Shown here: in pieces, positions 1 to 56,599 of the stretch
Layout of the letters: each line of letters begins with the position of its first letter
How positions within the stretch are numbered: the first letter of the stretch is position 1
Source: Obrimoposthia wandeli
Lineage: Eukaryota
Direction of reading: 5' to 3'
Assembly: GCA_977020255.1 (NCBI GenBank)
Contig: CDROCS010000294.1
Span: forward strand, 1 to 64,000
Length of the DNA stretch: 64,000 bases
The notes under the pieces: model-generated
What the model was told of the DNA's origin: nothing
The model's database searches: none
What the model saw: the letters and a program-made list of their open reading frames with translations, nothing else
Program-made: the position numbers and the translations under genes

Positions 1-830
1 AAAGATATGCAGCTACACACGCTTATTTTAATAATAAAATTGATTTCTATTATCATAAAGGATTGATGCAAATGGAACAGTTATATCGGATGATGATTGA
101 AAGAGATTGCCAGTTAAACAAAGAGATCGTGAGAACAAAGTTAGCATTAGCTATTACGAATCCAGACATGGCGGTAACCATTATTACCCTTGGATGAAGG
201 AGTGATTTGCTAAAACCATGGAGAAGTATTTGTATACTTACAGAATTAATAGTAGAGGTACAGTTGAGAAAAACAAATCGATGTACAGGTGAATTGGCAG
301 TAACGTATAATTTAAAAGATCTTTTGTTGAACCAATCACGAAATGTTACTTCAAAGACACCCCAACTAAAGAAATCAGCTGCTCTAATATAATGGCACCT
401 GAATATCAGATGACGAATAATCTATGGATAACGTTACCTGATCGGGAAGCCAACGAAAACCCCAGCGACTATTGATAAGAATGACGAATCTTAAGGTAAA
501 TGAAATTCCAAGCGGTGGAAAATATGGAGAACGCAAGTTGTACAATGAAAAAAGATTTAAAAGCGGCGTGGAACGAAATAATGTTTCCAGTAAGAAGAGC
601 CAGAGTACTTTGCGGAGATGGTACATCGAGCATTACCGCCAGGAGCGAGATATGCGAATTTCGATATGTTATTATCGCCAAGTCATTTCAGGAAGCAGCA
701 TGAACACTTAGAAAGATGTGGGGGAAATTCCTTGTCTTAGGACAACTATTTTCGGGTATCATAGGTATTTATGTTATAATTAAATTTGTGCAGGTAATTC
801 TTAGGTGTTGTCTACGTATAGTTTATACAG
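1..830 (+). pseudogene. C-terminal part of chuvirus-like envelope glycoprotein, frameshifted
   Basis: Manual translation across frames gives RSFVEPITKCYFKDTPTKEISCSNIMAPEYQMTNNLWITLP, KDLKAAWNEIMFPVRRARVL and KMWGKFLVLGQLFSGIIGIY. These match element B's FVEPITR...KEINCSNIMAPHY...IWITLP, EDIDKLRKEILFPQIRSRIL and KIWGKFLIFGQAFSGLVGIY. Confidence 0.88.
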
Positions 831-1259
831 GATAACCGGAATCACCTGGCAACTTATAATTGGATGTTTTTCCATTTTAGCAAAATATCTAATGCACCAT
901 CACGAGAACGAGTTGCGAGCCCTCAAAAGAAGGAACAACACCAAACGAGAACCATGATGAGAGAACCAAGAAACTATCGAGACGACAACGACGACGATAA
1001 TGATAGTCCAGAAGATATGCAAAAGATACCAGGAAAACCAAAGATTCCGTTACCAGACAAGGAAAAGTGGCGTTAAACCTATACCCAGCAGAAGGAATTG
1101 AAGGAAGAGAAGGAAAAATTCAAGAGAGGCATCTTAATGATAAGATGGCTAAAGTGAGAAACGCTACAGTGAAATTCCACAAGCAGAGGAAAAAGACAAA
1201 AGATAATTCCAGAAGAATTCTGAAGTCTAGGATATCAAACGAGAATCCCAATGCTCCTA

Positions 1260-13240: not shown

Positions 13241-14011
13241 TCCTTTCCTCCCTTCTTTCCTTCCTGACCTTGGTTATCGTGTAATTTTGTGTGTAAATTT
13301 TTAGTTGTGCATGGTTAATAGTGTATACTTTGAGACTTGCTCCAAATTATATATTATGTTTCCCACTGGAAAACCGAGATTTTGAAAAAATTGTTTTTGG
13401 GCATGTTTGTTGAGGTTGAATGATTGATTTTGTAGGGATGAACCTAAAATCAACAGCCAAAGGCTTATTAAGTAAAATCGATACGTTCCGGGGACGTAAC
13501 TTTTTTGGAACCCCCGAGGTATGTTAAGGTTGAGAATTAAGAAAATTAAATATTTTAGTTGATTAAATACTAAAATAAAAAATCCTTGAAAGCAAGGTCG
13601 AAAATTGAATTAAAATATTAATTTAAGTTTTAGAAGTAAAATTAGTGAAATTTAGGGTAAATTAGGAGGACCACGAAGGTCGTGTATTATGCGAAAATGT
13701 ATAAAAGTTTAAAGTTAATTAACCAAAAGGAACAAAATAAGAATTAATTAGAAGAAAAACGGTTAATTACAACCGTCGCTCAAGGATCCCCAAGGTAAGC
13801 ACATTTTCGTGCAATAAACTAAATTTTGTTTGCAGCTGTCAATTGATTGACATTGCAATATTCTCTCCGGGTTCGCTGAAGAAAGACTCAACGCAGCCGT
13901 CAACTGATTGACGTCCAGTGCCAATATATAAAGGCAGGTTTTCCAGCTAGAATCACAAATACGGAATCGCCAGAAGAAACAAAGACAGGAAGCAACAATC
14001 CCCTCGTCAGA

Positions 14012-14591
14012 CGAACCGTTGATTGAAGAGTCGAACCGTTGATTGAAGAGTCGAACCGTTGATTGAAGAGTCGAACCGTTGATTGAAGAGTCGAACCGTT
14101 GATTGAAGAGTCGAACCGTTGATTTAAGAGTCGAACCGTTGATTGAAGAGTCGAACCGTTGATTTAAGAGTCGAACCGTTGATTGAAGAGTCGAACCGTT
14201 GATTGAAGAGTCGAACCGTTGATTTAAGAGTCGAACCGTTGATTGAAGAGTCGAACCGTTGATTGAAGAGTCGAACCGTTGATTGAAGAGTCGAACCGTT
14301 GATTGAAGAGTCGAACCGTTGATTGAAGAGTCGAACCGTTGATTGAAGAGTCGAACCGTTGATTGAAGAGTCGAACCGTTGATTGAAGAGTCGAACCGTT
14401 GATTGAAGAGTCGAACCGTTGATTGAAGAGTCGAACCGTTGATTGAAGAGTCGAACCGTTGATTGAAGAGTCGAACCGTTGATTGAAGAGTCGAACCGTT
14501 GATTGAAGAGTCGAACCGTTGATTGAAGAGTCGAACCGTTGATTGAAGAGTCGAACCGTTGATTGAAGAGTCGAACCGTTGATTGAAGAGA
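14012..14591. repeat. 20-bp minisatellite (CGAACCGTTGATTGAAGAGT) x29 inside LTR A
   Basis: Exact 20-bp period. Three units carry a G>T change (at 14121, 14161, 14221). Confidence 0.97.
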
Positions 14592-14702
14592 CGAACAGTC
14601 GATTTCGAAGACGATTCCGCCAGGCTCGCAAACACCACATACGGACCCTACACCGGACGTCCCACGAGTTGCTGTAACTGGTAAGAACACAGACTAGGTT
14701 CA

Positions 14703-33954: not shown

Positions 33955-34858
33955 TGTTATATTTTGTTAATTTCCAATATATTCAGTTTTTCCAAAAATA
34001 ATCTGCAACTAATTTCTTGTATAATTGAATAGTTTTCTATAAATCTGAACGAATCTGAACAATTTGTTTTTGAAAATATATTTGACGGTATATAAATGGA
34101 TAAAAATTTTCAGTGATAATAATCAAAATGGGATATATTTTTAAGAAAAATGAAATTGAATTATGGCAATACAAATCTGTCAGAGTGATAATTTTTAATA
34201 GCCAATAGAGATAAAATTTTTCCGTGTGTCCATTATAATGACGACGATTGCTATAAATAGCAATCGTCCAAATGTCAACTGGGCAAGGCTGATTCGCATA
34301 ATGTCAGAGCAGAAAGAAACGAAATCCATGCGAGATCGACGATTGCTATAAATAGCAATCGTCTAAACACAGTTTTCGGTATTTTTTTAATCTTGGGGTT
34401 TCAATCAATGGGTCCATGCAATCTTGTCATTAAGGGAATTTAGTTGCCATCAGGAGGGACTGCGAGTCGGCAGAGTGCGACCGATGGAGCACTGGAGGGA
34501 GCCAAGCGCACACAAACTCCCGGCACGCACGCACACACACATAGGATGATGCCGGCCGACCGGGATGACGTACACAGAACTGCGGACTGCGGAACCGGCC
34601 GAGAAAGGGCAAACCGCCGCCGCATCTGCTGCAAAGCTGGGCGAAAACCCCTGGCGGCCAAAACCACCCTTTATTTTCATCACTAAAAAAAAACAGCCGC
34701 CCTCCCGATGAGCCTGGCAAGGCGAAACGGGCTAACAACCCGTCGGAGGCTGAGATTTGATAAACCTCCCTAATTGTGGGTACTTTAGATAATTTTAAAG
34801 AATGTCAATTTAAATTGACTGTAATTTATTTTAATTAATTTTAATTAAAGACCCAACA
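33955..34858 (-). repeat. 3' LTR of element B
   Basis: Direct repeat of 47348-48251. Confidence 0.97.
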
Positions 34859-35129
34859 ATCCTATGGGGGTATACAAAGTCAGACCTCTGACGTTTTATA
34901 TTTAACAAAGATGTTTGTTTAATTGTTAAAATAATCATTGTTAAACATAGTTAAAAAAAAATTGTCATCATTTAAAATATGGATTCATTCATGCTATAAA
35001 ATTATTTTTATGCTTTGGATAAAAATCAGCCATAAACACGATTACTCTAGTAGTGTTTACTTTTTTTATTTTCTGTTCACTCTGATTTTTCTCGAAACAT
35101 TTTCTAAAATAATAAATTTTCCTACCACT

Positions 35130-36305
35130 TTAAATGTTGTCCTCAGAATCAGAGGAGGTGAGATCTATAACTTCATATAGGTCATTACTGGCAATGTAGG
35201 GGAGAGAGACAGTCAGTCCACATTCTTTTATTAGCTCTTGCTCTTTATGGAGGAAAATTTTTCGGGTCCATTGCGTGTCTATGAGGCTAGAGTGGGTATT
35301 CTTTTGTATTTCTTTATTGAAATACCACGAAACTATTCGAGCAAGTCCGGCTTGTTCTCTACGGTTCATTTCCATTTGAATAGTTTGTGTTGCCCCTAGA
35401 TCAACCGTGTGCGAAAAATCGTTTTTTTGTAATCCTAAAACTTTGAGATCGTTGGATATTCCCGTCCCTACGAAAATATTGTCTCTTAGTAAGGATTGGA
35501 CACGTTCTAACACTTCGACAGAATCAGGTTGGTTTCTTAACTTCCGTTCATTAAGGCCCGTTATTCTTGTCACATAATTCCTGATTCTGTCTCTGCTATT
35601 GCATTTCGTATCCAACACGATCTGTCCGCTTCTATTCATTATTGTAATGCTAGCTAGGTGGGTTTGTTTGTTCATTTTTACTACCATTTCACAATCGACA
35701 AAAAATATTTGAGGATTGTTGGGTATGATATTCAAATGGCAGACTTGAACGGGATTAGGTCGCACATTTTGCTCCATGAAAAATATGTTATTTCCACCCG
35801 AAAAACGAATCATCAAATCGGGAGTTATTTGATGTCTCATTAATCTGTAAGAGTGGTTTTGCAGGAGAAGGATAGAAAAATGTTTGCTTTTCCTGTGTTT
35901 TAAAAATCCACGGCCTTTTGCTACGTGAATCTCAATGTCCGTGCATATTGGTAAGAAATTCATCAACTCAAACAGTCTTTTTTCTGTTGGCTTTTTACTA
36001 TTTATGTTGAGAATTATACTTTGTCTTGGGGTGTCTCTTAACTTAATGCTATTTGGAAGCTGGGTCTGATTGTCAAAAAGCTTTATTCCGTAATGGTTAT
36101 GGAAATACCTTGTTCCAAACTGTCTTATTTTTCCATAAAGGAACTTAGCCATTTTCGCCATTTCTGGACGTTGTTCTGCTAATTGGACCGACTTCTCTCT
36201 CTTTCCCGCGGCACCACCTGCCAGTTCAAATGAGGATTCGTGCTTGTGGGTTCCATCTGTAGGGTATACAGATATAGTAAAAAAATGTTGATCTTTTACA
36301 TGCAA
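35130..36305 (-). CDS. DEDDh 3'-5' exonuclease (ISG20/REX4-like) with unknown N-terminal half and C-terminal SIM-like motif
   Basis: ExoI FFVDCEMV, ExoII FVGTGISNDLKVL, ExoIII THSSLID; NYVTRITGL; C-terminus EVIDLTSSDSED. Confidence 0.9.
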   Translation of the reverse strand: MHVKDQHFFTISVYPTDGTHKHESSFELAGGAAGKREKSVQLAEQRPEMAKMAKFLYGKIRQFGTRYFHNHYGIKLFDNQTQLPNSIKLRDTPRQSIILNINSKKPTEKRLFELMNFLPICTDIEIHVAKGRGFLKHRKSKHFSILLLQNHSYRLMRHQITPDLMIRFSGGNNIFFMEQNVRPNPVQVCHLNIIPNNPQIFFVDCEMVVKMNKQTHLASITIMNRSGQIVLDTKCNSRDRIRNYVTRITGLNERKLRNQPDSVEVLERVQSLLRDNIFVGTGISNDLKVLGLQKNDFSHTVDLGATQTIQMEMNRREQAGLARIVSWYFNKEIQKNTHSSLIDTQWTRKIFLHKEQELIKECGLTVSLPYIASNDLYEVIDLTSSDSEDNI

Positions 36306-36683
36306 ATATAAAAATTGTCAACTGTCTATCAAATGAAATGTTCCTGTTAGTTATTTTGTCTCTTTTTGTTAATCAAAAATCTGTAAATCGTTTTTGTCTT
36401 TATGTAACAAGTTTAACAAACAAGGTATATAAATAAGATATGATTTTTTCATTTTTCAATATATATTCTTATTACTGGTGTTACCAATATCAATATATAC
36501 ATATCTATACTGGTATATTCATTTTTTACCTATTCTTAATTTTATTATTACTATTTCAACTAAAGTTAATGAATATTAATACCCATTCATAAACGCATTT
36601 CCTCTCCAAAAACATGCCAAAAGCCCAAACTCATTCTCAATTTTCTTTTATTTTATATTTTATTTTACTCACTGGGGATTTTA

Positions 36684-36992
36684 CTAATTTTCACACCCGG
36701 AATCATCGCTTTCTCCCGGTTGAAATCCCATCAAACGATTAATTACTGATCTCAATGATACGAGAGAGTTTAATGCTTCTCTGAGTCGTCGTACTAATAT
36801 TTCTTGGGTTGATTGGCTATATTCTAATCTTTCAATTGCAACGTCAAAAGCATTATTCATTCGTTCACATTCCATTTCCTTGTCTTTTAAATACGATCTC
36901 AGATTTATATTCTCTATTAACAATTTATTTTCCCATTTTTTCTGTCTCTTATATCTTCTTCTATTATTCTGTACTAATTTTGAATTTCTCAT
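36684..36992 (-). CDS. Small basic/coiled-coil protein (bZIP-like), 102 aa
   Basis: NNRRRYKRQKK basic stretch followed by heptads (LLIENINLRSYL...LEYSQSTQEILVRRLREALNSL); clean ORF between AT-rich gaps. Confidence 0.5.
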   Translation of the reverse strand: MRNSKLVQNNRRRYKRQKKWENKLLIENINLRSYLKDKEMECERMNNAFDVAIERLEYSQSTQEILVRRLREALNSLVSLRSVINRLMGFQPGESDDSGCEN

Positions 36993-37063
36993 TTTCTAAA
37001 TTGTTAAAAAGTTTTTAAGTCTTATTTTAAAAAAAAAAAATAAATAAATAAATCTTTTGATTT

Positions 37064-37864
37064 TTACAAATCAGTGTTGTTTTTCTCTTTGTGCTTATAG
37101 TTCTTGATTACCGTATCTATTGATGTATTGGATGAATTTGTACCACTTGGTATTAGGGATGTTATGAGTGGACCTGGTGGTCCATACAGTTTGTTTAAGT
37201 GAAATGATTTTTTAGTTTTAATTCTTTTAAAAGTTTTTATTTTTATTATTACTTTTATTAAAATGTTAAATATTTCGATTATTATTGCTATTATTATCTT
37301 AAATTCTGTATGATATATGTTTTGTGAATGATTTCGTTGACTAAAAAATATTATATGTTTTAAGTTCATCGATTTTGATGAATTTATTGTATTTTTTAAA
37401 AAGGTTGACTGGTTTTGTATGTTTTCTTTAGAAATGATTGATGATATTTTCTTAAATATTTTTGTTGTATATTGTGTTAAATATATTTTCATTACTTTTG
37501 TTGATTTTAATATAGGTTCTTTTATTTTTATTATTAGCCAACTCCCGCAAAAAAGAGTTGGTTGAAACATTTTTGATATCTTTTTTCCTATTATTTCTAA
37601 AGTAGTTATGTTTTTGTAAGTATTCAAAATGTGTCCCCAACTTCTATACATCATTGGTTTATTTGTGATTACATATTCTCTATATTGTATTATTATTCTC
37701 TCTGGATATGTTATATTTTTTATGGTTAAATTTGTTTTAGATTGTGTTTTTTCTAATTGTTTTTCTGAGTTTTTCCAAAAATTATCATTATGTCCTCTAT
37801 ATCTAATTCTAATGAGGGCTTTATCTAAGTCGTCTATTTTTAGTTGAAATTCCCATTTTATCAT
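37064..37864 (-). CDS. C-terminal continuation of the pol polyprotein (FN3-like ectodomain part + TM + tail), detached by a tandem duplication
   Basis: Begins with MIKWEFQLKIDDLDKALIRIRYRGHN, identical to the end of the pol ORF; hydrophobic FKIIIAIIIEIFNILIKVII. Confidence 0.75.
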   Translation of the reverse strand: MIKWEFQLKIDDLDKALIRIRYRGHNDNFWKNSEKQLEKTQSKTNLTIKNITYPERIIIQYREYVITNKPMMYRSWGHILNTYKNITTLEIIGKKISKMFQPTLFCGSWLIIKIKEPILKSTKVMKIYLTQYTTKIFKKISSIISKENIQNQSTFLKNTINSSKSMNLKHIIFFSQRNHSQNIYHTEFKIIIAIIIEIFNILIKVIIKIKTFKRIKTKKSFHLNKLYGPPGPLITSLIPSGTNSSNTSIDTVIKNYKHKEKNNTDL

Positions 37865-38309
37865 TATTTTATGTTTTGATATATATTTCGCTGTTGTTTC
37901 TAATATTGATGCTAGGTATATGTGAGTTTCTATAGTTCTTTGATAAAGTGTAATGTTTTGTGTATTTGATTTTATTTTAATTTCATATTGTGTTTCATCT
38001 CTTAAGAATGGTATTGTATATTTTCGTGATTTTATTCCTATTATTGTTATGTCCTCTATATCTAATTCTAATGAGGGCTTTATCTAAGTCGTCTATTTTT
38101 AGTTGAAATTCCCATTTTATCATTATTTTATGTTTTGATATATATTTCGCTGTTGTTTCTAATATTGATGCTAGGTATATGTGAGTTTCTATAGTTCTTT
38201 GATAAAGTGTAATGTTTTGTGTATTTGATTTTATTTTAATTTCATATTGTGTTTCATCTCTTAAGAATGGTATTGTATATTTTCGTGATTTTATTCCTAT
38301 TATTGTTAT
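37792..38309. repeat. 259-bp tandem duplication (2 copies) disrupting the polyprotein frame
   Basis: The sequence starting GTCCTCTATATCTAATTC occurs at 37792 and 38051; 259 is not a multiple of 3. Confidence 0.92.
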
Positions 38310-41300
38310 GTTTTGTTTTCTGTCTTTTTGTGTAATTTGTATATTTCCAGTTTTGTTTATAAAGAGCGAGATTTTTAACTTTATAGATGTGATTTCTGGT
38401 ATTATCGTAATTAAACCAAAATTTTTTATAAGATGTGTTGTCGAGTCATGTTTATTTATAACATTTTTTATAGTTAGTTTTTTATCATTTAGTTTGGTAG
38501 CATTTGCTCCTTGCACGTTTTTACTTATGGAGAGATAAATTGCGAATATTATTAAAATTTTTGAAAATTCCTTTATTGATATAACTATTGCCTTATTCCA
38601 TTTAGATTTTTTGTTTTTAATATTTTTTCTCTGTATATCTTGTATTGGTAACATTTGTAAAACTGTGTTTTTTGTGTTTGATCTCAAATTATATTTATGG
38701 CTTTTTACTGTTGTATTCTCTTCTGGTACTTGTCGACATCTATTTATGTGTGTTCTTATTTCTTTTGATTTTAGTTCATTGTCGAGTTTAGCTGTTATGT
38801 TAGTTCCATTGGTACTAATAACTGTATATGGTCCTTTGTATGGTTTTGATAATTTGTGTGATAATCCTACATTGATTTGTGGATTGTGAATCATTATTTT
38901 ACTTCCGATTTTTATATTTGATGTTTTAGTTCTTCTATCATAATATTCTTTGTAATTTTCTTGTATGTTTTTTACAAATAATTTAGCTTTTTCAAATGCT
39001 AATTTTATTCTTTCTCTAATTTCTATTTTGTATTCAGGTATTTCTAGGTATTGTGTAGTAGGTTGTAGTAATGTTAGATCAATAGGCATTTGCGGATCTC
39101 TGAGGAACATAAGGTAAAAAGGTGTTTCTCCTGTAGATGCATGTACTGATGTTCTATGTGCAAAAAGGCATGGGGGTATGTGCAAATCCCAATCTGTTTG
39201 GTTGTTGTTTGTATATGATGCCATCATATCTTCGAGGGTTCTATTAAATCTTTCTACTAATCCGTCGGTTTGAGGGTGATATGGTGTTGTATTGATCTTT
39301 TTTATGTGAAAGATTTCAGCTATTGATGCTAATACATTATTTATAAATTCAGGACCTTTGTCGGTTAATAATTTTCGGGGTGCACCGAAAGTAAAAATAA
39401 TTTTTTCGACTAAAACCTTCGCGATGGTTTCAGCCTTATGATCATGTGTTGGAAAAGCCTCTGGCCATTTTGTAAAATAATCTGAAAATACTATTATATA
39501 TCGATTTCCTCGGGGTGTTTCAGGTAATGGCCCCATTACATCCATGGCAACAGTTTCCATGGGGGCCGATGGATACGGTATTGGTTTTAAAGGTATCTTT
39601 GTGGTACGTAAGGTGTTTTTTCTTTTAAGACATATTTCACAAGTATTACACCAATTTTTTACATCTTCTTTCATATCCTCCCAATAATATTTTAAATTTA
39701 ATCTTGAATGTGTCTTTTTTGTTGACAGATGTCCTCCTAAAGCTCCGTTATGATATTGAAGGAGTAATTGGCATTGTATTTCTTTAGGTATAACTAGTGA
39801 GTACAGATTTTTATCGTTTAAATAATGTAAAATATTGTTACTGAATTTATAGCGATATTCATGAATTTTTAAATGTTTTCTTAATTTTTCATCTGTTGGA
39901 ACTTGATTGATGGTGATATACTTAATTATTTGTTGTAATTCCGTATCTTTGCTTTGAAGATCGGTGATTACTTTATCATCATATCGAGCCTTGATTATTG
40001 TAAAAATATTTAATTCGGTGTCATTGGAATTTATTACATTTACTTCTTCTCTTATTCTAGATAGGCAATCTGCATTGGCGTTTGATTTACCTTTTCTATA
40101 TTTAATTTCAATATCATATTTTTGGAGAATTAACGCCCATCTCATTAATCTAGATGTTGTATCTTTATGATTTAGTAGCCACTGTAATGGTCTTTGATCA
40201 GTATAAACGTGAACTTTTCGACCTAATAAGTAATGTTTAAAATGTTCCATTGCGAAACAAATAGCGAGGCATTCTCTTTCTATTGTTGAATAATTTATTT
40301 CGTGTTTTTTAAGACTTCTGCTTGCGTACGCTATCACATGATCTTTTTCGTTATTATCCTGTTGTCCTAGTACTGCTCCTAACGCGTATCCACTTGCGTC
40401 AGTCATTACTAGAAACGAGTTGTTGAAATTAGGATATCTCAATATAGGTTTTTCAATCAATTTTTGTTTTAGGTACTCGTATGACTCTTGTTGTTCCGTT
40501 TCCCATTCAAATTCTTCATCCTTTTTAATAAGTTTGTTTAATGGTGTTGCTATTTGTGCAAAGTTTCTGATAAATCTACGATAATATCCAGCAAGTCCTA
40601 AAAATTCTTGTATATTTTTTACTGTTTTTGGGATCGGAAAATTCTTTATTTTTTCTATATTACTTTCATCTGGTTGAATTCCTTTTGCTGATACTGCGTG
40701 ACCTAGATAATTCACTTTGTCTTTCATCCATTCACACTTTTTTGGTTTTAATTTTAAACCTGCTATTTTTAATCTAAGAAATACATTTTCTAAATCTTTT
40801 AAATGTTCTTCAAAATTTTTTGAAAAAATTAGAATATCGTCGATATAAACCATGACATGATCGGCGTCCATTAAAATGTGGCTCATGCACCTCTGAAATG
40901 TTGCTGGAGCATCTGTTAATCCAAAAGGTAAAACGTTAAATTCATATAATCCTTCTCCTGTTGAGAATGCTGTTTTTTCTTTATCTGATTCATCTATTTC
41001 TATCTGCCAATATCCACTTTGTAAATCTAAGGTTGTAAATATTTTTGCATTTTTTAGTTTATCTAAGATTTCATCAATTCTTGGAAGCGGATATGTGTCT
41101 TTATGTGTGATCTCATTTAATTTTCTGTAATCTACGCAAAATCTTAGTGAACCATCTTTCTTTTTTATCAAAACAACTGGAGATGTCCATGCTGAAAAAC
41201 TTCTTCTTATGATTTTATTCTCTAACATTCCTTTTACCTGTCTTTGAGCTTCTTCTCTGTAAGCGTATGGGATACGGTAAGGTCGTTGTTTGATTGCTGT

Positions 41301-42500
41301 ATTAATAGTTAACGGAAGGTTATGTTTAATTAAATCTGTTCGTCCTAGGTCATATTCATTTTTTGCAAAAATTACGTCATATTTCTCCATCAATGATTTT
41401 AGTTTTGATTTCTCATAATCATTTAATCTAATATTTTCAAATTTTACAGCGGAATTGTCTTCTATTTTTTCATTATTAATTAATTCTATATTCTCTATAA
41501 CACTTATTTTTCCAAGGCGTGTTCCTACTTTTAGATGAATCTCGTTTATGTCTCCATTTAATATTCTGATAGGTATTGTATTATTTTTTATTTTACAAAT
41601 TATATTTGGTAGAACGTAATTTAATGTTTCCTGTTGATATTTATAAGGTTCGAATAAGATGTCTTTTTCTGTAACTATGTTAGTTTCTAATTGTAATATT
41701 GTTTCTGTTCTAGGTTGAAGAATGATATCTCCTTTTATTTCCAATTCGTATTCGCTTTTAGCGTTTGGTCTGTAAATGTCTTTAATTTGATTTTTCTCAA
41801 AGTCGAAGTGAAAATTGTTTCCTAATTTCCTCAATGTATCTATTCCTATTATCATCTGACATGGACAATTTTTCATTATTCTAGTAGGTATTTTTATAAA
41901 TTTATCTCCTATTTTAAAAATGCAATCTAATTTACCAATAATATTTACGGGTTGACCGTTTGCTGCTGTTATTTGACTGTTATCTGTGAGAAGTAGTAAT
42001 ATTTGGTGTGGTTTTAAGAAAGATTCGTCCAAAACTGTTACGCTTGATCCTGTGTCAATTAAAGCTTTTAATTTATACTCATTTATTTCAACTTTTACAT
42101 AAGGTCGTCTATCATTATCCATTTGATTTATAGTATATATTGTTGGTGCAGTTAATTTTTGAACTATTATTTCTTCTTTATATCTTTCTAAATCGGGGTA
42201 TTGTGCAGATTCTGTATTCTCTTTATTTTTATTGTCTACTATTTTTTGTAAATTTGTTTCTCGCATTTCGTTTGATAATGCGTTTACAGTATTTTGATGA
42301 TGATTAAATATAAGAAATTTTGCCAAAAATGGAAAACATCCTAATATTAGTTTCCATGTTAATCCTCCAACTTTATAAATATAGTATGTGGATAAAATTT
42401 GACTCAATAGTATTTTAAAGCATATTAGTAGTGCATATATTCCTACAAGTCCAGAAAATGCTTGTCCAAATATTAAAAATTTTCCCCATATTTTTGACAT
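37995..42500 (-). CDS. pol: Glycoprotein TM tail + protease + RT + RNase H + integrase + signal-peptide/FN3-like extension (1501-aa open segment)
   Basis: KALIDTGSS, YPLPRIDEIL, LDLQSGYWQI, YIDD, MTDASGYALG, GGHLS...CEIC, DVMGPL/DKGPEF/YHPQTDGLVERFN, GPY. Hydrophobic N-terminus belongs to G. Confidence 0.97.
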   Translation of the reverse strand: MSKIWGKFLIFGQAFSGLVGIYALLICFKILLSQILSTYYIYKVGGLTWKLILGCFPFLAKFLIFNHHQNTVNALSNEMRETNLQKIVDNKNKENTESAQYPDLERYKEEIIVQKLTAPTIYTINQMDNDRRPYVKVEINEYKLKALIDTGSSVTVLDESFLKPHQILLLLTDNSQITAANGQPVNIIGKLDCIFKIGDKFIKIPTRIMKNCPCQMIIGIDTLRKLGNNFHFDFEKNQIKDIYRPNAKSEYELEIKGDIILQPRTETILQLETNIVTEKDILFEPYKYQQETLNYVLPNIICKIKNNTIPIRILNGDINEIHLKVGTRLGKISVIENIELINNEKIEDNSAVKFENIRLNDYEKSKLKSLMEKYDVIFAKNEYDLGRTDLIKHNLPLTINTAIKQRPYRIPYAYREEAQRQVKGMLENKIIRRSFSAWTSPVVLIKKKDGSLRFCVDYRKLNEITHKDTYPLPRIDEILDKLKNAKIFTTLDLQSGYWQIEIDESDKEKTAFSTGEGLYEFNVLPFGLTDAPATFQRCMSHILMDADHVMVYIDDILIFSKNFEEHLKDLENVFLRLKIAGLKLKPKKCEWMKDKVNYLGHAVSAKGIQPDESNIEKIKNFPIPKTVKNIQEFLGLAGYYRRFIRNFAQIATPLNKLIKKDEEFEWETEQQESYEYLKQKLIEKPILRYPNFNNSFLVMTDASGYALGAVLGQQDNNEKDHVIAYASRSLKKHEINYSTIERECLAICFAMEHFKHYLLGRKVHVYTDQRPLQWLLNHKDTTSRLMRWALILQKYDIEIKYRKGKSNANADCLSRIREEVNVINSNDTELNIFTIIKARYDDKVITDLQSKDTELQQIIKYITINQVPTDEKLRKHLKIHEYRYKFSNNILHYLNDKNLYSLVIPKEIQCQLLLQYHNGALGGHLSTKKTHSRLNLKYYWEDMKEDVKNWCNTCEICLKRKNTLRTTKIPLKPIPYPSAPMETVAMDVMGPLPETPRGNRYIIVFSDYFTKWPEAFPTHDHKAETIAKVLVEKIIFTFGAPRKLLTDKGPEFINNVLASIAEIFHIKKINTTPYHPQTDGLVERFNRTLEDMMASYTNNNQTDWDLHIPPCLFAHRTSVHASTGETPFYLMFLRDPQMPIDLTLLQPTTQYLEIPEYKIEIRERIKLAFEKAKLFVKNIQENYKEYYDRRTKTSNIKIGSKIMIHNPQINVGLSHKLSKPYKGPYTVISTNGTNITAKLDNELKSKEIRTHINRCRQVPEENTTVKSHKYNLRSNTKNTVLQMLPIQDIQRKNIKNKKSKWNKAIVISIKEFSKILIIFAIYLSISKNVQGANATKLNDKKLTIKNVINKHDSTTHLIKNFGLITIIPEITSIKLKISLFINKTGNIQITQKDRKQNITIIGIKSRKYTIPFLRDETQYEIKIKSNTQNITLYQRTIETHIYLASILETTAKYISKHKIMIKWEFQLKIDDLDKALIRIRYRGHNNNRNKITKIYNTILKR

Positions 42501-42509
42501 TGTATTTTT

Positions 42510-44110
42510 TGTAGCTTTTATGTAATGGTTTGGAGAAAGTAATAAATCATAATCAGGACGGCTAATTCCGTCTGGTACTGATCTTTCTATGATTTGTGTT
42601 AAAATTCGTGATCTTATTTGAGGAAATAAAATTTCTTTTCTTAATTTATCTATATCTTCTTGTATGTAAATGCCTTTTGTATTTAGTTCATTGTCTGGAT
42701 TTATTTCTATGTCATTTTTAGATTTGTTAATTGTAGTTTTAGTGGTTGAGTAACTATGTCTCTTCTTGGTAATGTTATCCAGATATCTTTTGAAATTTTA
42801 TAATGAGGTGCCATTATGTTTGAACAGTTTATTTCTTTTATGCTGAATGTGTTAAAAAGTATTATTCTGGTGATTGGTTCTACAAATAATGAATGATTTT
42901 TATATGAAATTGGTAATTCTTTAGTGCATTTATTGTGATTTCTTATATTAACTATTACTTTTTGGCATTGATACGTATATAGTACCTCTCCCATTACTCT
43001 TCCGAAAGTACCATCTGGTAACGGTAATAATGGTGTTATTAATTCTGTATTTGTAGCAATAATTGCTAGTTTTGTTTTCAAAATTTCTTGATTTAATTTA
43101 CAGTCATTCATTATTGTTTCTCTATAAATAGCTTCTATTGTCATTAATCCTTTGTGATAAAAATAATCTAATTTATTATTGAAATAATCGTAATTTTTTA
43201 TATCAAATTTTGTTGGTGTAGTTTTTGCATTATAAATTTTTTCTTTACTTAGATATATTCCTTTATAATTAGTTGTATAAATAGAGTGTCCACATCGGGA
43301 TTCCTCTTTCTTTTTAATAAATCGCATACCTGAACCTTGTTCAGTTGACATTAAAATAGTTGGAGTTGATGTTTTTTGTATTTTTTCTAGTTCTATATTT
43401 TTTAAGTATATTTTTTGGAATTCGTTGATCTAGCTCTGGATCATCTTTGAATCTTTGACCTTGAATTATTTGGAAATTTTCTGATTTTAGTAGTATTAAT
43501 TTACATTGGTCTGTTTTTACCTTATAGTATAAAATTGAGGATCCTGTGTTACAATATCCGATATTTGCTGCACAAAAAGGCATAGTCACCATGGTATTTG
43601 TAGATGGATCAAATGTTGCTTTAAATGTTCTTAGTTCTACCTCAAAGTTTTTTATAACTACTAAACCATTTTCTTTAACTCCCATTACGACGTATGATCC
43701 TGTTGTGCATTCTCCGTCAGATTTGATAGTTCCTACCACTGTAATCATTTGTTGTATTATTTTGTTTTTTATTGCTTTTACTTTTATTTCTCTATCTATT
43801 CTCAGTTCGCCTGTTGCAAAAGCATCTTTACAATTTAACGCGTCAACAATTATTGGTGTTTTTCCTAATGCTGGCTTAACAATTGAATTATGGCTGTGTT
43901 GTCCGCAATATGTTATGAATGTTTCCACATGTACTCTACTTTCGAAAACTTCTGTATTTATGTAATCTGTTTCCTGGTATACATGAAATAACTTGGTGGT
44001 TTTAACTTTTACTTCATTTGGATCTGCGTCGGCGCATTGTTGTAAATCCATTAGTGAATATTTATTTTGTATACTATATTTTGAACAATCATATGCTTCA
44101 AGAGCATTTA
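42510..44110 (-). CDS. Chuvirus-like envelope glycoprotein ectodomain (spans ORFs 43341-45323, 42707-43351 and the pol frame)
   Basis: Signal IIQIIFMICIITNIIKPINA, then LEAYDC...YSLMDLQQC...TYCGQHSHNS...GEC; GEVLYTYQC...KCTKELPISY...FVEPITRI...C...P-x-Y...W; TM region. This matches my recollection of chuvirus G and its endogenous copies. Confidence 0.8.
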
Positions 44111-45323
44111 TTGGTTTTATTATATTTGTAATTATACATATCATAAATATTATTTGAATTATTTTCCATAAATTCTGGATGATTTTGTTAAAATTATATG
44201 TATTTTTAAGATTTGAATTTTTACTATTTTTTGGTGATTTTCGTTTATTTTTATTTTTCGATTTTTTATTTTGTGTTTGAGTGGTTTGATTTATTTTTGT
44301 ACTTATTTGTGTTCTTTTTTCTAATGTTAGACAACCGTTTCTAAATATTTCTCCGAATTCGGATTGAGAGTTGGTACTATTTGTGTTTTGCTCATTGTTT
44401 TGGTATTGCTGATGTGTTTCTTTATAGCGATTATCTATTTCTTGTTGTCTTAATCTCATCAATGCAACCTCCTCTGTTTCCTGATTTATATCAGTGTTTT
44501 CAATAGTATGATTGTCTTTTTTACAAAATCTACAAAATTTGTTGTTGGTTATTTTATAACAATTCTCTATTGTGTGATTTTGCAGTCCACAATTTGTACA
44601 TTTTTGGAAAGGTCTTTGTGTAATTTGTGAATCTGTATAGTTTCTGTTTGTTTGATTCCTATAAAAGTTATTTGTCGGTGCTGTATATTGTTGCTGGTTT
44701 TGGTAATTAGATTGTGTATTTGAGTTATAGTTTTGAGTTTGATTGAAATTTGGTGGTGTTGTAGGTCTTTGTATTTTTTCAAAGGTTAATGCTGAAACTT
44801 CAGATTGTTGTAACATGTTTAATCTTGTTTCTACAAGTTGAGCCTTATTTACAGCTTGCTGAAAGTTTTCTACTTCTAGTAGAGCTGGATGATTTTTGAT
44901 TTTATTATTTAATCCATGTAGAAACTGATGTAATAGTAAGCGCTCTCTTAAAACTTCCTCAATTCCAGGGAATGATTTTAGGGCTAAACGTCTTAATTCA
45001 ATTGCAAAAATATTTGTGGGTTCTCCTAAATGTTGCTCACGTTGTCTAAACTGATTTAAGTAATTTTGCTCTGATTGGGTTCCTAAAATCATATTTTGAA
45101 AATTTTGAACTAAATGGTCCCATGTGTCTTTTTGTTCATTGTTTAATCCTCTATAAATTGTTAAGGCAGTGCCTTTTAAATACGCTGGAAAAACCCTAAG
45201 TTTCTCTTCATTAGTCCATTCAAATGCTTGAGCAAATGAATCAAATCTATTTAAAAATTCGGGTAATGAGGATTTATCGCCATTGAAAGCGTCTAAAGGA
45301 ACATTTAATTTATGTTCAGCCAT
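43341..45323 (-). CDS. gag: Gag (capsid + CCHC knuckle) fused in frame to the N-terminal half of G
   Basis: FNGDKSSLPEFLNRFD...AYLKGTAL...FLHGL (retrotransposon gag); CTNCGLQNHTIENC zinc knuckle and a partial second one. Confidence 0.92.
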   Translation of the reverse strand: MAEHKLNVPLDAFNGDKSSLPEFLNRFDSFAQAFEWTNEEKLRVFPAYLKGTALTIYRGLNNEQKDTWDHLVQNFQNMILGTQSEQNYLNQFRQREQHLGEPTNIFAIELRRLALKSFPGIEEVLRERLLLHQFLHGLNNKIKNHPALLEVENFQQAVNKAQLVETRLNMLQQSEVSALTFEKIQRPTTPPNFNQTQNYNSNTQSNYQNQQQYTAPTNNFYRNQTNRNYTDSQITQRPFQKCTNCGLQNHTIENCYKITNNKFCRFCKKDNHTIENTDINQETEEVALMRLRQQEIDNRYKETHQQYQNNEQNTNSTNSQSEFGEIFRNGCLTLEKRTQISTKINQTTQTQNKKSKNKNKRKSPKNSKNSNLKNTYNFNKIIQNLWKIIQIIFMICIITNIIKPINALEAYDCSKYSIQNKYSLMDLQQCADADPNEVKVKTTKLFHVYQETDYINTEVFESRVHVETFITYCGQHSHNSIVKPALGKTPIIVDALNCKDAFATGELRIDREIKVKAIKNKIIQQMITVVGTIKSDGECTTGSYVVMGVKENGLVVIKNFEVELRTFKATFDPSTNTMVTMPFCAANIGYCNTGSSILYYKVKTDQCKLILLKSENFQIIQGQRFKDDPELDQRIPKNILKKYRTRKNTKNINSNYFNVN

Positions 45324-47024
45324 TATTTGAGGTTGATCGATTATTTGTTCGTTGTTTATCTGTACAATAGGTGGTTCTGGGACGGCTACTGCTTCCGTTA
45401 TTTCTGACGAACTATCCGAGTCAGATGTTTGTGGTGAAGGTAAACTCTCTGTATCTGAGGTTAAAGCTAGGTCCAGATGTTCTGAGAGTGGGGAAGTCTG
45501 TGTAAGTAAATCGTTATTTGTTGTAAAACTGATTTGTGATTTGGGTCTTTGAATTGTTTTTTCACTGGAGTCTGTTCTAACTAATCTTGTTTGAATTCTT
45601 CTCCAGTGAAGGTTAACTACGTTTTTGTTTACTTATTTTGTGTGTCTGTTTTTGTGATAGATCTTTGGGTTTGTGTTATTAATAATTTATTTAAAGTTTC
45701 AAAATCAAATATTGCACAAATGAAAAATGCGTACTGCGTACTGAAACTAAAAATATTTCGGAGGAATTCGTAAAAGTTATTTAGTTAATCTCAAAATCAA
45801 ACTCTCTTATCAATATTAAAAACACGCTCTCTGAAAATCTCTGGAGAAAATTTATCTTTCCGAAGTTTTATTTTATTTTGTTTTTTAATTTTTTTTTAGA
45901 ACAATAACAAGACTCAAAAATTTATCTCAACAATCTCTGTCCCTTATCACTTTGAGCACTACCACCGCCAACCAGTATATAGTCTTTATATGATAGCACT
46001 CGACGTAACTTGGGAAACAAGACAATTTGCGACAAAATTTTAAATTTTTTGATCAATTTTATTTTTATACAAAAATATATTTATATGATTATTTTAACTT
46101 TTATTATCTTTTTAGTTATTTATTTTACTTTTACGCCTCTAATAGATAAATCCACTCCAATTTATAGTTCTCAAAAAACGAATTTCCTACTGGTTAACCG
46201 GTTCAAAGGAAAATGTTAAAAAATTTTCAAAATTTTCTATAACTCTTATTACTAACTACAAGTCAATTAATTGTTTGTTATACTTTACCAATGAAGATAG
46301 GAACAAAAATATTTATATACACGCAGCACAATAGGATTATTTATTGATACTTTTCAAAGTTAAATTTGAAAAATGGACTACAATATATACGATTTTAACA
46401 ATTCTGAATTAGTTATGACTTTTAATGATGTCAACTTTTTAATGTAACAACTCTATGGTTCCAAATCAGTTTACCAAAGAATAAAAATGAATGTAAAATA
46501 GTAAGTCCAACTTCGAGAGATAATATAAATGGTATAAGTAGTTGAATCAAAAATCAAATACAATTGTAAAGCCGTAAAATTGTTTTTAAATAAAAATTAT
46601 GATATATGAACTTTTAAACAGTAATTATTTTCAGAAATGTTTAGGTCAAGGTATTCCTACAGTCTCTCACAATTCTAAACAATACTCGTGAGACTATAAG
46701 AATCCCTAATTTTCAAAAATAATATTTATACGATTATGACATTCTATCTATCGCTATTAGAAATAAACATAATTTTAAATACAATAATCAATTTTTAACA
46801 CAAATTATATACACTTATATAAATGGAAATTAACTGAATATTTTATTCCCAGAAAAGAAACTGCAAAAATAAATATGTTAACAAATAAACCCAAAATATG
46901 AGTTTTAAAATTACTTCAAAGAATTTTAAAAATCGAACTCAAAGTTCTTCAGGGCAAGTTATCATAAATGAACACTACAAATCACTAAAGCCACAAAAAA
47001 CACCTAAATAGTCTCTATTATTTT

Positions 47025-47300
47025 AAGATTAATGTAAAATCCGACCCAATAATATTAATATATTAAAATGTAACACAAAAACCAAAAATACAATAAAATC
47101 AAAATAATAAACTATTCTAAGATTAATGTAAAATCCGACCCAATAATATTAATATATTAAAATGTAACACAAAAACCAAAAATACAATAAAATCAAAATA
47201 ATAAACTATTTCAAGATTAATGTAAAATCCGACCCAATAATATTAATATATTAAAATGTAACACAAAAACCAAAAATACAATAAAATCAAAATAATAAAC
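47025..47300. repeat. 94-bp tandem repeat x3 in the leader of element B
   Basis: AAGATTAATGTAAAATCCGACCC recurs at 47025, 47119 and 47213. Confidence 0.92.
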
Positions 47301-47329
47301 GACCTGCAGTCCAATTTCCGTATTGTGCT

Positions 47330-47346
47330 CTAAGTCGAGCTCACCA
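47330..47346 (-). promoter_or_regulatory. Primer-binding site, tRNA-Trp-like (tentative)
   Basis: TGGTGAGCTCGACTTAG starts 1 nt inside the 5' LTR boundary; resembles the canonical Trp PBS TGGTGACCCCGACGTG with 4 mismatches. Confidence 0.7.
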
Positions 47347-47347
47347 A

Positions 47348-48251
47348 TGTTATATTTTGTTAATTTCCAATATATTCAGTTTTTCCAAAAATAATCCGCA
47401 ACTAATTTCTTGTATAATTGAATAGTTTTCTATAAATCTGAACGAATCTGAACAATTTGTTTTTGAAAATATATTTGACGGTATATAAATGGATAAAATT
47501 TTTCAGTGATAATAATCAAAATGGGATATATTTTTAAGAAAAATGAAATTGAATTATGGCAATACAAATCTGTCAGAGTGATAATTTTTAATAGCCAATA
47601 GAGATAAAATTTTTCCGTGTGTCCATTATAATGACGACGATTGCTATAAATAGCAATCGTCCAAATGTCAACTGGGCAAGGCTGATTCGCATAATGTCAG
47701 AGCAGAAAGAAACGAAATCCATGCGAGATCGACGATTGCTATAAATAGCAATCGTCTAAACACAGTTTTCGGTATTTTTTTAATCTTGGGGTTTCAATCA
47801 ATGGGTCCATGCAATCTTGTCATTAAGGGAATTTAGTTGCCATCAGGAGGGACTGCGAGTCGGCAGAGTGCGACCGATGGAGCACTGGAGGGAGCCAAGC
47901 GCACACAAACTCCCGGCACGCACGCACACACACATAGGATGATGCCGGCCGACCGGGACGACGTACACAGAACTGCGGACTGCGGAACCGGCCGAGAAAG
48001 GGCAAACCGCCGCCGCATCTGCTGCAAAGCTGGGCGAAAACCCCTGGCGGCCAAAACCACCCTTTATTTTCATCACTAAAAAAAAACAGCCGCCCTCCCG
48101 ATGAGCCTGGCAAGGCGAAACGGGCTAACAACCCGTCGGAGGCTGAGATTTGATAAACCTCCCTAATTGTGGGCACTTTAGATAATTTTAAAGAATGTCA
48201 ATTTAAATTGACTGTAATTTATTTTAATTAATTTTAATTAAAGACCCAACA
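47348..48251 (-). repeat. 5' LTR of element B
   Basis: Direct repeat of 33955-34858, adjacent to the PBS. Confidence 0.97.
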
Positions 48252-48282
48252 ATAATATTATCAATTTTTATTGTCTTAATCA

Positions 48283-48520
48283 AATCCAATTGTTGTTTCT
48301 GTAATAGAATATAGTCCTGATTAAGAATCAAATTATTGTTTCAGTAATAGATTATTGTCTGATTTCGAATCAAATTATTGTTTCAGTAATAGATTATTGT
48401 CTGATTTCGAATCAAATTATTGTTTCAGTAATAGATTATTGTCCTGATTTCGAATCCAATTATTGTTTCAGTAATAGATTATTGTCCTGAATTCGAATCA
48501 AATTATTGTTTCTGTAATTA
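48283..48520. repeat. About 42-43-bp minisatellite, 5-6 copies
   Basis: AATCAAATTATTGTTTCAGTAATAGATTATTGTC(C)TGATTTCG repeated in tandem. Confidence 0.88.
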
Positions 48521-49399
48521 TAATTATTTTGGTTAATTCAATTTTTGTATTTCTTCAATAATTTTGCTTTTGTGAAAAAATTGTGAAACGAGGCAAAACT
48601 AATAATTGTGATTACAAGTCTGCAAGTAGACTTTATATATGCCATTACATGTACGTTTTGGTAATATCACAAAGTTAAATTGGGCAGGTGGGAATTTGGT
48701 AGTGTGTGGCCTTCATTGATAATTTTCGCTGCCTGCTTGAATTATTATTAGACATGGTGTGGAGGAGAGCGATCTGGGCAGAGGAAACTGGTATTTCCCG
48801 GCTCTGCACACACACACACATGTGCAGCCGGGAAATTTCACCGTCTTTCAAAATTCTGGGCAGGTGGAAAATGCCAAAGTGCATATTTTATCTAAATAGA
48901 ACTTTTCCCTAATTAAGGAAAGTTCTTAATTAATTAATTAATTCTTATTTTTTAATTTTTTTATATATATTTTCATTTTTTTAAATAAATATTTATAAGA
49001 TATTCCCAACATTTTTACTTCATCAAACATTGAAGGGAGCATTCGAAAAACAACACTTGAGGCAAACTTTTATTTTTAACTTTCTGCAATTGATCTTTCT
49101 AAACCAATTTCAAATTCAAAACTTAATTATAAACTTTACCTTGGCTACGTCCACGCCAACCATAATCCATACAACCATAGCCGAATAACCATAACTTTAA
49201 AAAGCCAAGGTCATACGCTTTTTAAAATAACCTTTATTTTTCATCATTTTCAGAATCGTTTAAACGCGATGATTCACAATTATTTGTGTTAGACGAGAGA
49301 ATTAGTAAAACTGATTAAATGAGTTCAAAAAAGGGGAGCTAAGCTAAGTTCTAGACACCTTGACAAAAACAAAAACAAACAAAAGATCTCATGTTATCT

Positions 49400-54774: not shown

Positions 54775-55010
54775 TGAGTCAACTATCAGGGAGTCGGCCA
54801 GTTTGATCAGAGACTTAATCAACTATCAGAGAGTCGACCAGTTGATCAGACAGACTTGGTCAACTATCATTGAGTCGGCCAGTTAATCAGACAGACTTGT
54901 TCAACTATCAGTGAGTCGGCCAGTTGATCAGACAGACTTGTTCAACTATCAGTGAGTCGGCCAGTTGATCAGACAGACTTGGTCAACTATCAGTGAGTCG
55001 GAGTCGAACC
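54775..55010. repeat. About 39-bp minisatellite x6
   Basis: GACTTGKTCAACTATCAGTGAGTCGGCCAGTTGATCAGACA units. Confidence 0.88.
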
Positions 55011-56599
55011 GGTTTGGGGTTGTTACTGTTGGAAAGCCTCAGAAATTGTCGACCGCATCGTTGTTCTCCATCAAATGAAAAAAAAATGACTAGCCTTGAC
55101 AAACTCCGCTGTCGTGCTCACTAATATGGAGAACGAATAGCAACGTTATTCAAATATTTATTTCAGCTGACAGGAAAGAATATTTAAACAAGCAAACCTT
55201 TGTAGAATATTCTATTGCCTCATCAATATGGGAATACATCACATCTCATTTGATCTAATTTTTGTAGGAAGTTATTATCCTCAACTGAGTCCGCTGATGC
55301 ATCGACTATTGAGCAGCGACATCATCTTCTTCTGGAAGTCTTAGATCCACCACACTAAGTAAATGGATACTACAGCTGTTAAATATATATAAAGAACACA
55401 AAAGAAAAATTGTAAACTTAAAAATATTTATAAAATAATTAGTTAATTATAAATGTACATTTGTATGAAGTTTACTTGCTTATGTACCAATAAAAATAAT
55501 TTTACCCATTGGGAATATAACCTTAAAATCTTTAAATTATGTTTTTCATATATTATTGAAACATATTTAAATATATTTTATTGACAGAAAAAGAGAGTTT
55601 GTGTTTCGGAGCGGAGGATAGAGTATAAAAACATAAAACTTCATAGATTCTTTATTGAAACATAAACTATAATTCATCATAACAACTTGACTTCGATACA
55701 TAATCACTTACATTTACATTACTTTTTTTATCACCAAGGTTAACTTAAATTAACCTGTTAAAACACATAAAATTTTACAGAAAAAGATGACTTCCATTAC
55801 CAGATCCATTACCCGCCCATCATCGTCATCTCACTGCCCACTATTGAAAGTTTCTAAAAGTATTTTAATATATTTAATTCTTTCGGAGGTTCTTCAACAG
55901 TTTATGTTTATGGTTGCATTTGAACCTTAAAATAAAACGGAACTGTTAAGCTCTTAATATATATATTTACTAATTTCCTTTTTTCAATTTATACCAACTT
56001 TTGACATTTATTGGAAATCTTCGGGTTTAATATAATATTCAGAATAATCACTTTCAATCATATTGATTTCATAATTATAAGGTGACTCATAATTACTTTC
56101 AAACCCCCTATTGGCCATATAAATGTCTTCCAATAGTTGTAAAAAGTTCCTGTTTCCTTCTGACAATTTTAAATTTTCTATAACATTGTAAAAAAAAAAT
56201 TTAAAGAGGTACTTATGTAGTTGGTATGTGTTAAAAAATTGTATATAGATCAAAGTGACTCATAATTAGAACTCTAAATTCAAGATGATCAATATAGAAA
56301 TAAGTAGTTACAATTATTTTAAATTTATACTTGCTGACTCATTTAAATTCAAACATTACTTTTGGTAAAATTTATTCAAGAAAATGCATGTAAAATAAAA
56401 ATAACTTATAGTATTGTTCTTTTTTTAACTATTTTCCAAATGCTACACGTTTTCCAGTGATGATGGGAGAAAATCTTTCAACAATTATAGTTTTCAAGTA
56501 CTCAATTGTCTTTTGATTGTATAATGCAAACCAACAATACATACGTTTCAACTAAGCACTAATGTGAGTTAAATCGGCTAGCTATATGTCGTCCGACAC

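Follow-up and report, generated by a model that had tools for sequence, protein, structure and literature searches.

Organization of the element in the window

The window analysed here, a stretch of 64,000 nt (contig CDROCS010000294.1, positions 1 to 64,000), contains a 14.3-kb Ty3/gypsy element on the minus strand. It is bounded by a 5' LTR with TG...CA ends (47348..48251) and a 3' LTR (33955..34858), which are 99.6% identical (4 differences in 908 aligned nt). An identical 4-mer, the target-site duplication, is found outside the LTRs at both ends. A TGG stretch that by its sequence resembles a primer-binding site lies just inside the 5' LTR (47330..47347); in the search for its tRNA, 6 loci out of 26 pattern matches were checked, and none of the 6 was a tRNA gene.

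The gag region (44184..45323) encodes a capsid, a zinc-knuckle region and a basic linker (Retrotrans_gag, E 4e-4, under the curated cut-off). It is followed by an internal signal-peptide-like segment (44103..44183, based on hydropathy), the ectodomain of a putative class III fusogen of ~550 aa, here called G (42491..44102), and the membrane region of G (42306..42490, based on hydropathy and alignment columns). In the subsequent pol (38700..42110, ends approximate), Pfam places protease, reverse transcriptase (RT), RNase H and integrase in the order PR-RT-RH-IN. Farther downstream are a second membrane-protein module (37064..38590, start approximate), a small ORF of 103 aa (36684..36995) with nothing over the Pfam cut-off, and a separate ORF whose product has a DEDD-type exonuclease domain (35130..36317; RNase_T, E 4e-10) and which is also present in sister copies. 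The left end of the window holds part of another element, element A, in which the C-terminal half of a related G is found in broken form (18..921, plus strand).

The absence of BEL/Pao-type Pfam domains together with a Ty3-like RT supports a Ty3/gypsy rather than a BEL/Pao backbone. The nearest solved RT structure is that of Ty3 (4OL8, E 2e-99), followed by 8r0s (E 3e-63), foamy (6e-41) and MLV-type (1e-27) structures, in a comparison set of solved structures that is not known to include one of BEL/Pao. The host, judged from COX1, is a triclad flatworm: the gene reads cleanly with translation table 9 and its best named matches are triclads (73-75%). COX1 genes of bacterial type are numerous in the assembly, so this assignment is based on one mitochondrial-type copy.

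Reading frame and copy number

In the window copy, gag starts with a Met at 45323, and the ORF 43341-45632 is stop-free through the knuckles, the basic stretch and the signal-like segment and takes in the first third of the Cys-rich G ectodomain. A second ORF in the same frame as gag (37995-42797) extends from the G anchor (about 42490-42306) through protease, RT, RNase H and integrase without a stop. The middle 240 aa of G are located in a different frame (ORF 42707-43429). G of the window copy is therefore interrupted by two frameshifts, the first within 43341-43429 and the second within 42707-42797. Relative to sister copies, gag carries an in-frame deletion of ~355 nt near 44500, the linker between knuckles and signal measures 432 nt instead of 744-790 nt, and the second module is interrupted by a 259-nt tandem duplication (37781-38298).

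In sister copies, gag, G, PR, RT, RH and IN all share one frame. A single frame from gag to integrase is found in 3 of 20 copies chosen for long frames. Among 19 copies picked by DNA similarity, 3 are open from gag to protease, 16 have the G anchor and protease in one frame, and 9 have the knuckles and signal in one frame. None of the copies examined has an uninterrupted frame all the way from gag through the last anchor, and the polyprotein length of ~2,800 aa is summed from lengths in different copies. The first-pass annotation, which placed a fusogen between gag and pol in the same frame, is borne out, with the frameshifted G of the window copy as a caveat. No recurrent frameshift site was found at the gag/G or G/pol junction among the copies compared. 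Frameshifts are located mostly in homopolymer runs (15/17 in G, 32/33 in PR-RT-RH; counts biased by the inclusion of copies chosen for long frames). Programmed frameshifting at either junction was rejected from this comparison of copies. Within gag, 25 indels are in-frame, and the linker between knuckles and signal varies in length by such indels.

The family is young, recently amplified and abundant, with many near-identical copies; at least 559 were counted as matches to a 25-mer from G (control 0). G is present in 28 of 29 copies picked by RT, adjoining the protease in 27 and lying behind an insertion in one; most family members thus carry it.

G resembles chuvirus fusogens of class III and is under purifying selection

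The three G pieces of the window copy match consecutive parts of the Monjiviricetes_fusion profile PF24664 (4-225, 240-461 and 459-635 of 653) far better than expected by chance (E 2e-27, 2e-31 and 2e-25), and a score of 307 bits against this profile was obtained for G. The ectodomain of unbroken copies has 14 cysteines. An AlphaFold monomer model of G from a sister copy reached a pLDDT of 88.9; in a Foldseek search with this model, the best viral match was the G protein of a chu-like virus (E 2e-43, 21% identity), and herpes gB was also recovered (E 5e-13). The link to gB comes only from the fold search, as the G sequence gave no match at E<=1 against solved structures. Profile and predicted fold together support a full-length chuvirus-like class III fusogen, as had been proposed from the sequence. 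Neither of the two outcomes named beforehand as speaking against that proposal, a lack of similarity to chuvirus G or any fusogen fold and an absence of G from most copies, was observed.

The membrane region of G comprises one clear hydrophobic core followed by two helices with periodic polar residues, a pattern also seen in stand-alone G proteins. In all 15 polyproteins examined, a hydrophobic segment directly precedes the A/G-Y/F-D-C start of G, with 126-1340 aa of the same ORF upstream of it. Ahead of the signal, some relatives have a clear positive charge whereas others lack one, which counts against the membrane-threading model outlined below.

Selection was assessed on variants common to at least 3 of 34 copies. 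G has 56 synonymous and 14 nonsynonymous shared variants (pN/pS 0.06), PR-RT-RH has 37 and 8 (pN/pS 0.05), and the pN/pS of gag is 0.16. By this sequence measure, G is under purifying selection similar to that of pol, which adds to the evidence that it is functional.

Origin of G

Relatives at 27-45% G identity, also from other data sets, have the same gag-G-pol layout, and the trees of their G and RT are congruent. The capture of G is therefore old and shared rather than fresh. An independent capture into Ty3/gypsy had been suggested; the Ty3/gypsy backbone stands, but the event is common to these relatives. In a quick G tree with midpoint root, 16 polyprotein G sequences fall on one side and 45 stand-alone G sequences on the other, a clustering that is partly built in because the polyprotein rows were also top-scoring matches. 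The broken G tail of element A shows 30-52% identity (tblastn, E down to 4e-31) and matches PF24664 on 3-194 (E 1e-7). It lies upstream of the protease motifs of element A, in agreement with the initial description. Members of the element A family contain BIR and RING domains and frames of up to 5,301 aa.

That G is a mere passenger, either the degraded remnant of a viral insertion or an error of assembly, in frame by chance, might be suspected from the two frameshifts in the window copy. It is extremely improbable, being contradicted by the presence of G in hundreds of copies, by the purifying selection on it and by the same layout in distant relatives from other data sets.

Proposed expression as a membrane-threaded polyprotein

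The element probably represents a recently amplified triclad Ty3/gypsy family of the GAG-ENV-POL kind known from Burro and its kin, expressed as a single-frame, membrane-threaded polyprotein. In this model, the ribosome would make Gag in the cytosol, and the internal signal would thread G into the ER. Signal peptidase would free the N-terminus of G, leaving Gag tethered via the signal stub. The G anchor would then stop transfer, so that Pol emerges on the cytosolic side and could be cut free by the element protease, and a second signal would repeat the ER threading for a C-terminal glycoprotein. Particles carrying G could bud from that membrane and reach other cells, the probable destination being stem or germ cells. 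Processing by signal peptidase with Gag and Pol left cytosolic, as the first-pass annotation envisaged, fits the sequence and is plausible. Past the main G anchor lies a second, moderately hydrophobic helix (KD 1.7); if it crossed the membrane, Pol would be lumenal. This helix counts against the model, as do the broken state of the window copy and the failure to find the complete frame intact in any of the copies examined.

Because all three would come from one threaded polyprotein, Gag, G and Pol would be made 1:1:1 on one membrane. A 1:1 ratio of Gag to Pol is unusual among LTR elements, so additional Gag may be supplied in another way. The ratio, and any topology problem, would presumably be solved if the single DNA frame served separate RNAs, with splicing or early polyadenylation giving extra Gag or a G-less Gag-Pol and G having its own message, as in classical errantivirus env; env of gypsy is classically a separate ORF. 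Such a scheme has no need for both junctions to be in frame across relatives at 27-45% G identity, nor for a linker between knuckles and signal that changes by in-frame indels, and it is regarded as very unlikely. Four sequencing runs of undefined kind (contigs, one sample) contained single-contig joints only and are uninformative on splicing.

The same polyprotein could also act mainly inside the cell, with G and the signal stub holding Gag and Pol at ER or vesicle membranes, where they are assembled or handed on from cell to cell, without a free infectious particle. The layout does tie all parts to one membrane, and G has no prominent furin-type site besides one R-x-x-R. Chary and Hayashi (2026, PMC13524379) also describe the way in which gB-type elements enter cells as unknown. 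Anchoring alone, however, would not call for an ectodomain of 550 aa whose cysteines are conserved, for a complete class III fold or for a pN/pS of 0.06, and a mainly intracellular role is regarded as unlikely relative to the membrane-threaded, particle-forming element outlined above.

A second membrane module after integrase

In sister copies, the frame continues beyond integrase into a signal-like segment, an ectodomain of ~310 aa with N-glycosylation sequons, an anchor and a Y-x-P-P tail. Of the 28 distinct copies that carry the module, 20 have it in the frame of integrase, and its shared-variant pN/pS is 0.33. The same signal-ectodomain-anchor-YxPP plan occurs in 4 of 5 long relatives, with no sequence match found between their modules and this one. 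Pfam yielded no family at E<=10, no homologue was found among 6,148 candidates, and a single-sequence structure model reached a pLDDT of 30. A likeness to fibronectin III comes from language-model features only (Atlas scores 0.91 and 0.92, few shared features). The motif L-x-P-x-T-x-Y, which we take to support the fibronectin-III reading, is found in 4 of 5 relatives and is absent from the family of the window element.

Tentatively, the polyprotein may encode a two-glycoprotein envelope, a possible though doubtful reading. The gB-like fusogen before Pol would be joined by a fibronectin-III-like module with a conserved Y-x-P-P tail that is released by signal peptidase and mediates attachment, triggers fusion or acts as a decoy for a host receptor. 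If true, the module would provide a candidate partner for cell entry by gB-type errantiviruses, a step so far unexplained, and the element would work as a flavivirus-style membrane-threaded polyprotein. A published description of the module was not found, and it is the part least likely to be familiar to specialists.

Comparison with known elements

The gag-G-pol layout is already known from planarian elements, and the family described here is a further case; novelty of the layout is not supported. A polyprotein with env in frame and placed between gag and pol was described in 2019 for Burro/GYPSM1 of Schmidtea mediterranea and Dugesia tigrina, where env matches mononegavirus fusion glycoproteins (Arkhipova and Yushenova 2019, PMC6431247). 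As far as the available portion of that report goes, the window element shares with Burro the triclad host, a Gag with CCHC knuckles, the in-frame env, the PR-RT-RH-IN order, a single polyprotein and high copy number. Burro, in contrast, exceeds 30 kb and has an ORF of 4,873-5,140 aa with MATH, BIR, BCL2, ankyrin and dUTPase domains, whereas the window element has 14.3 kb and ~2,800 aa, and Pfam detected none of these domains in it. Conversely, its post-integrase membrane module and DEDD exonuclease ORF go unmentioned for Burro in that portion. The window element thus works like Burro but falls outside it by size and domains; the element A family is nearer to Burro in size and cargo. Being compact, young and present in hundreds of near-identical copies, the family of the window element is an easier study object than the 30-kb Burro. 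It raises the questions of how a single polyprotein can place a fusogen in the ER with Gag and Pol cytosolic, and of whether such elements move from cell to cell in animals in which adult stem cells also give rise to the germ line.

HSV/gB-type GAG-ENV-POL elements of the Ty3/gypsy group were described in 2026 from Nematoda, Bryozoa and Platyhelminthes (Chary and Hayashi 2026, PMC13524379), those of nematodes having been reported by Sacco et al. 2022 (as cited in PMC13524379). They include Smed_errantivirus_1-6, with 1-215 near-identical copies per Schmidtea entry. According to the excerpt available, the window element resembles them in its Ty3/gypsy pol, gB-type env, GAG-ENV-POL order, flatworm host and many near-identical copies, and its G has a gB-like (class III) fold, a signal-like segment and an anchor, as does their env. 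It differs in triclad host and family. Single-frame expression, signal peptidase, fibronectin and Burro are not discussed for gB-type errantiviruses in that excerpt.

Two further systems share single features with the window element, as described in the parts of the respective articles at hand. Anakin elements of mosquitoes likewise carry a chuvirus-like, gB-fold glycoprotein within an LTR element (Dezordi et al. 2020, PMC7642597), but are BEL/Pao elements of insects, whereas the window element is a Ty3/gypsy element of a flatworm. The Juno and Vesta LTR elements of bdelloids have an accessory exonuclease of the DEDD superfamily (DEDDy) 3' of pol as ORF3 (Rodriguez et al. 2017, PMC5408684). 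There the exonuclease replaces env, whereas in the window element the exonuclease (RNase_T match) accompanies an in-frame class III G.

Structure of the window copy and identity of its fusogen

An LTR element that carries the fusogen G between gag and protease occupies positions 33955-48251 of the window on the minus strand. Its paired LTRs differ by 4 mismatches in 908 aligned bases and end in TG...CA, and an identical 4-mer is found on both flanks. Ty3 is the nearest solved structure to its reverse transcriptase (RT), in line with the Ty3/gypsy backbone assigned by the first-pass annotation. The coding part is divided into three minus-strand ORFs: gag, a signal-like segment and the first third of G (43341-45632), the middle of G in a different frame (42707-43429), and the end of G, its anchor, protease (PR), RT, RNase H (RH) and integrase (IN) (37995-42797), the last sharing one frame with the first. 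Their matches to the Pfam profile PF24664 (Monjiviricetes_fusion) are consecutive (profile positions 4-225, 240-461 and 459-635 of 653), so that G of the window copy is full length, though broken twice. The order and common frame of gag, G and pol, as originally described, are seen in the frame-sharing ORFs and, with strong evidence, in the sister copies (other genomic copies of the element), whereas the middle of G is frameshifted in the window copy itself. Compared with these sister copies, gag has an in-frame deletion of ~355 nt.

The long 5' leader contains a 94-nt tandem array of three units (47019-47300), and contig coverage at 46100-47345 is far below that of the coding part. Further arrays outside the element (14009-14611, 48280-48529 and 54811-55015) have repeat lengths of 20, 42-43 and 41 nt, respectively.

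The proposed chuvirus-like nature of G is supported by profile and fold. The natural sequence of a sister copy, with a 550-aa ectodomain and 14 cysteines, scores 307 bits on PF24664. A structure model from a 120-row alignment (pLDDT 88.9, pTM 0.66) finds herpesvirus gB as best solved match (E 5e-13, ~10% identity, TM-scores near 0.37), and glycoproteins of chu-like and related negative-strand viruses as best predicted viral matches (E 2e-43, 18-23% identity, TM up to 0.69). By its modelled fold, G is a class III fusogen.

Conservation of G within the family

At ≤1 mismatch, the genome contains 559 matches to a 25-mer taken from G (control 0), and the best 150 protein matches are 98-100% identical. 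G is not absent from most copies, the outcome named beforehand as speaking against a capture: its tail directly precedes the protease in 27 of 29 other copies chosen by RT alone, the remaining two comprising one with G behind an insertion and one ending upstream of RT. Among copies with near-identical RT, G tails fall into two groups, ~91-94% and ~98-100% identical to the window, a pattern that suggests subfamilies or recombination near the anchor.

Landmarks were mapped in 40 loci, namely the window copy, 19 copies chosen by DNA similarity and 20 chosen for long frames, with 5 copies shared between the two sets. A single frame runs from gag to integrase in 3/20 long-frame copies (2,461-2,547 aa). 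In the DNA-similarity set, one frame joins gag to protease in 3/19, anchor and protease in 16/19, knuckle and signal in 9/19, and signal to anchor in 7/19. No recurrent frameshift site was found at the G junctions among the copies compared, and break positions differ. Since the frameshifts lie mostly within homopolymer runs, many may be assembly errors.

Variants common to at least three of 34 copies comprise 56 synonymous and 14 nonsynonymous changes and 1 stop in G (pN/pS 0.06), close to PR-RT-RH (37 synonymous, 8 nonsynonymous; 0.05); the value for gag is 0.16, and private variants range from 0.29 to 0.54. The low shared-variant ratio therefore indicates that G is maintained by selection.

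A mitochondrial-type COX1 from the assembly can be translated cleanly with the flatworm code and has triclads as best named matches (Bdellocephala 73%, Bipalium 75%, Obama 73%); at least 8 near-identical copies lie within nuclear-sized contigs. Many bacterial-type COX1 genes without stops are present as well, in part on contigs >1 Mb.

Relatives and age of the association

Among proteins in public sets, the closest are polyproteins whose G shares 27-45% identity. Protease follows G in frame in most, RT, RH and IN in several, and Gag or knuckles lie upstream in some. In all 15 polyproteins examined, window family included, a hydrophobic segment immediately precedes the start of G, and 126-1340 aa of the ORF lie upstream. 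In a quick midpoint-rooted tree, 16 polyprotein G sequences separate from 45 stand-alone ones (SH-aLRT 100), and an RT-RH tree of 8 rows reproduces two groupings of the G tree. Where an independent capture was first proposed, these observations fit a single old association of G with the pol lineage, not a fresh capture; they name no donor.

Relatives P0002, P0004, P0005 and P0153, as well as element A, the related element at the left end of the window, carry 2-4 aspartic-protease-like domains per polyprotein, some beyond integrase. P0007, a further gag-G-pol polyprotein, has an NCBI entry as a hypothetical protein from a 9-kb contig of a Flavobacteriaceae MAG; contamination from an animal is the most likely explanation.

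Putative processing and a second membrane module

Membrane-threaded viral polyproteins offer a general model for processing. The internal signal, following a basic linker, would start translocation, signal peptidase would release G, the anchor would halt transfer and leave Pol cytosolic, and the element's own protease would cut Pol free. Within the anchor region, a single strongly hydrophobic core comes first, and the helices after it carry polar residues at periodic intervals, as in stand-alone G proteins. A single membrane crossing is the simplest reading of this pattern; two crossings are conceivable.

Beyond integrase the frame enters a second signal-like segment, which opens a second membrane module (37064-38590, minus) whose ~310-aa ectodomain bears several N-glycosylation sequons and is followed by an anchor and a Y-x-P-P tail. 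Integrase end and second signal share a frame in 22 of the 32 loci carrying the module (33 examined); 4 of these are duplicates, giving 20/28 distinct copies, most chosen for long frames. Its shared-variant pN/pS (0.33, 27 copies) points to weaker constraint than on G. In each of the five long relatives, integrase is followed by a signal-like segment; four also have the anchor, the tail and an L-x-P-x-T-x-Y motif typical of fibronectin-III domains. Atlas features suggest fn3 (0.91 for the window family, 0.92 for one relative), and Pfam, homologue search and single-sequence folding returned nothing for the module; a fibronectin-III-like character is put forward as a lead only. A separate accessory ORF for a DEDD-type exonuclease (RNase_T; 35130-36317, minus) lies after the module, between pol and the 3' LTR.

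Element A and comparison with published elements

Element A (1-13300, plus) is a decayed, Burro-like giant. As the first-pass annotation had noted, it carries a related G tail upstream of its proteases: a broken C-terminal half of G (18-921, plus) is followed by a protease-like motif, BIR, RING, PR, RT, RH and IN. Three repeats of a ~100-aa beta-rich domain, recognized by eye (6120-7634), precede a dual-specificity phosphatase, hydrophobic segments and three small RING ORFs (11629-13240). Its sister copies encode G through phosphatase in a single frame, and the family in this genome has the order G, PR, BIR, RING, PR, RT, RH, IN and dual-specificity phosphatase, with the longest frames reaching 5,301 aa. 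It resembles Burro, a giant planarian gypsy element, in size and cargo; section 7 of the Burro paper (PMC6431247) makes no mention of a phosphatase.

No print description of the second membrane module or of signal-peptidase processing was found among the literature listings, term counts and Burro section covered, and figures, further parts of the papers, Sacco et al. 2022 and Repbase may hold either. DEDDy accessory ORFs are described for rotifer LTR elements in PMC5408684. An in-frame G between gag and pol is not new. The Burro env has this position, matches mononegavirus fusion glycoproteins and was called the first such case (PMC6431247). According to PMC13524379, gB-type GAG-ENV-POL Ty3/gypsy elements are known from Nematoda, Bryozoa and Platyhelminthes, with nine entries from flatworms, and their env is related to the chuvirus-like G of mosquito BEL/Pao elements, among which Anakin is described in PMC7642597. 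Planarian elements with this arrangement and this type of fusogen have already been published; the main value of the window element lies in its selection evidence, its compact young family and its second glycoprotein.
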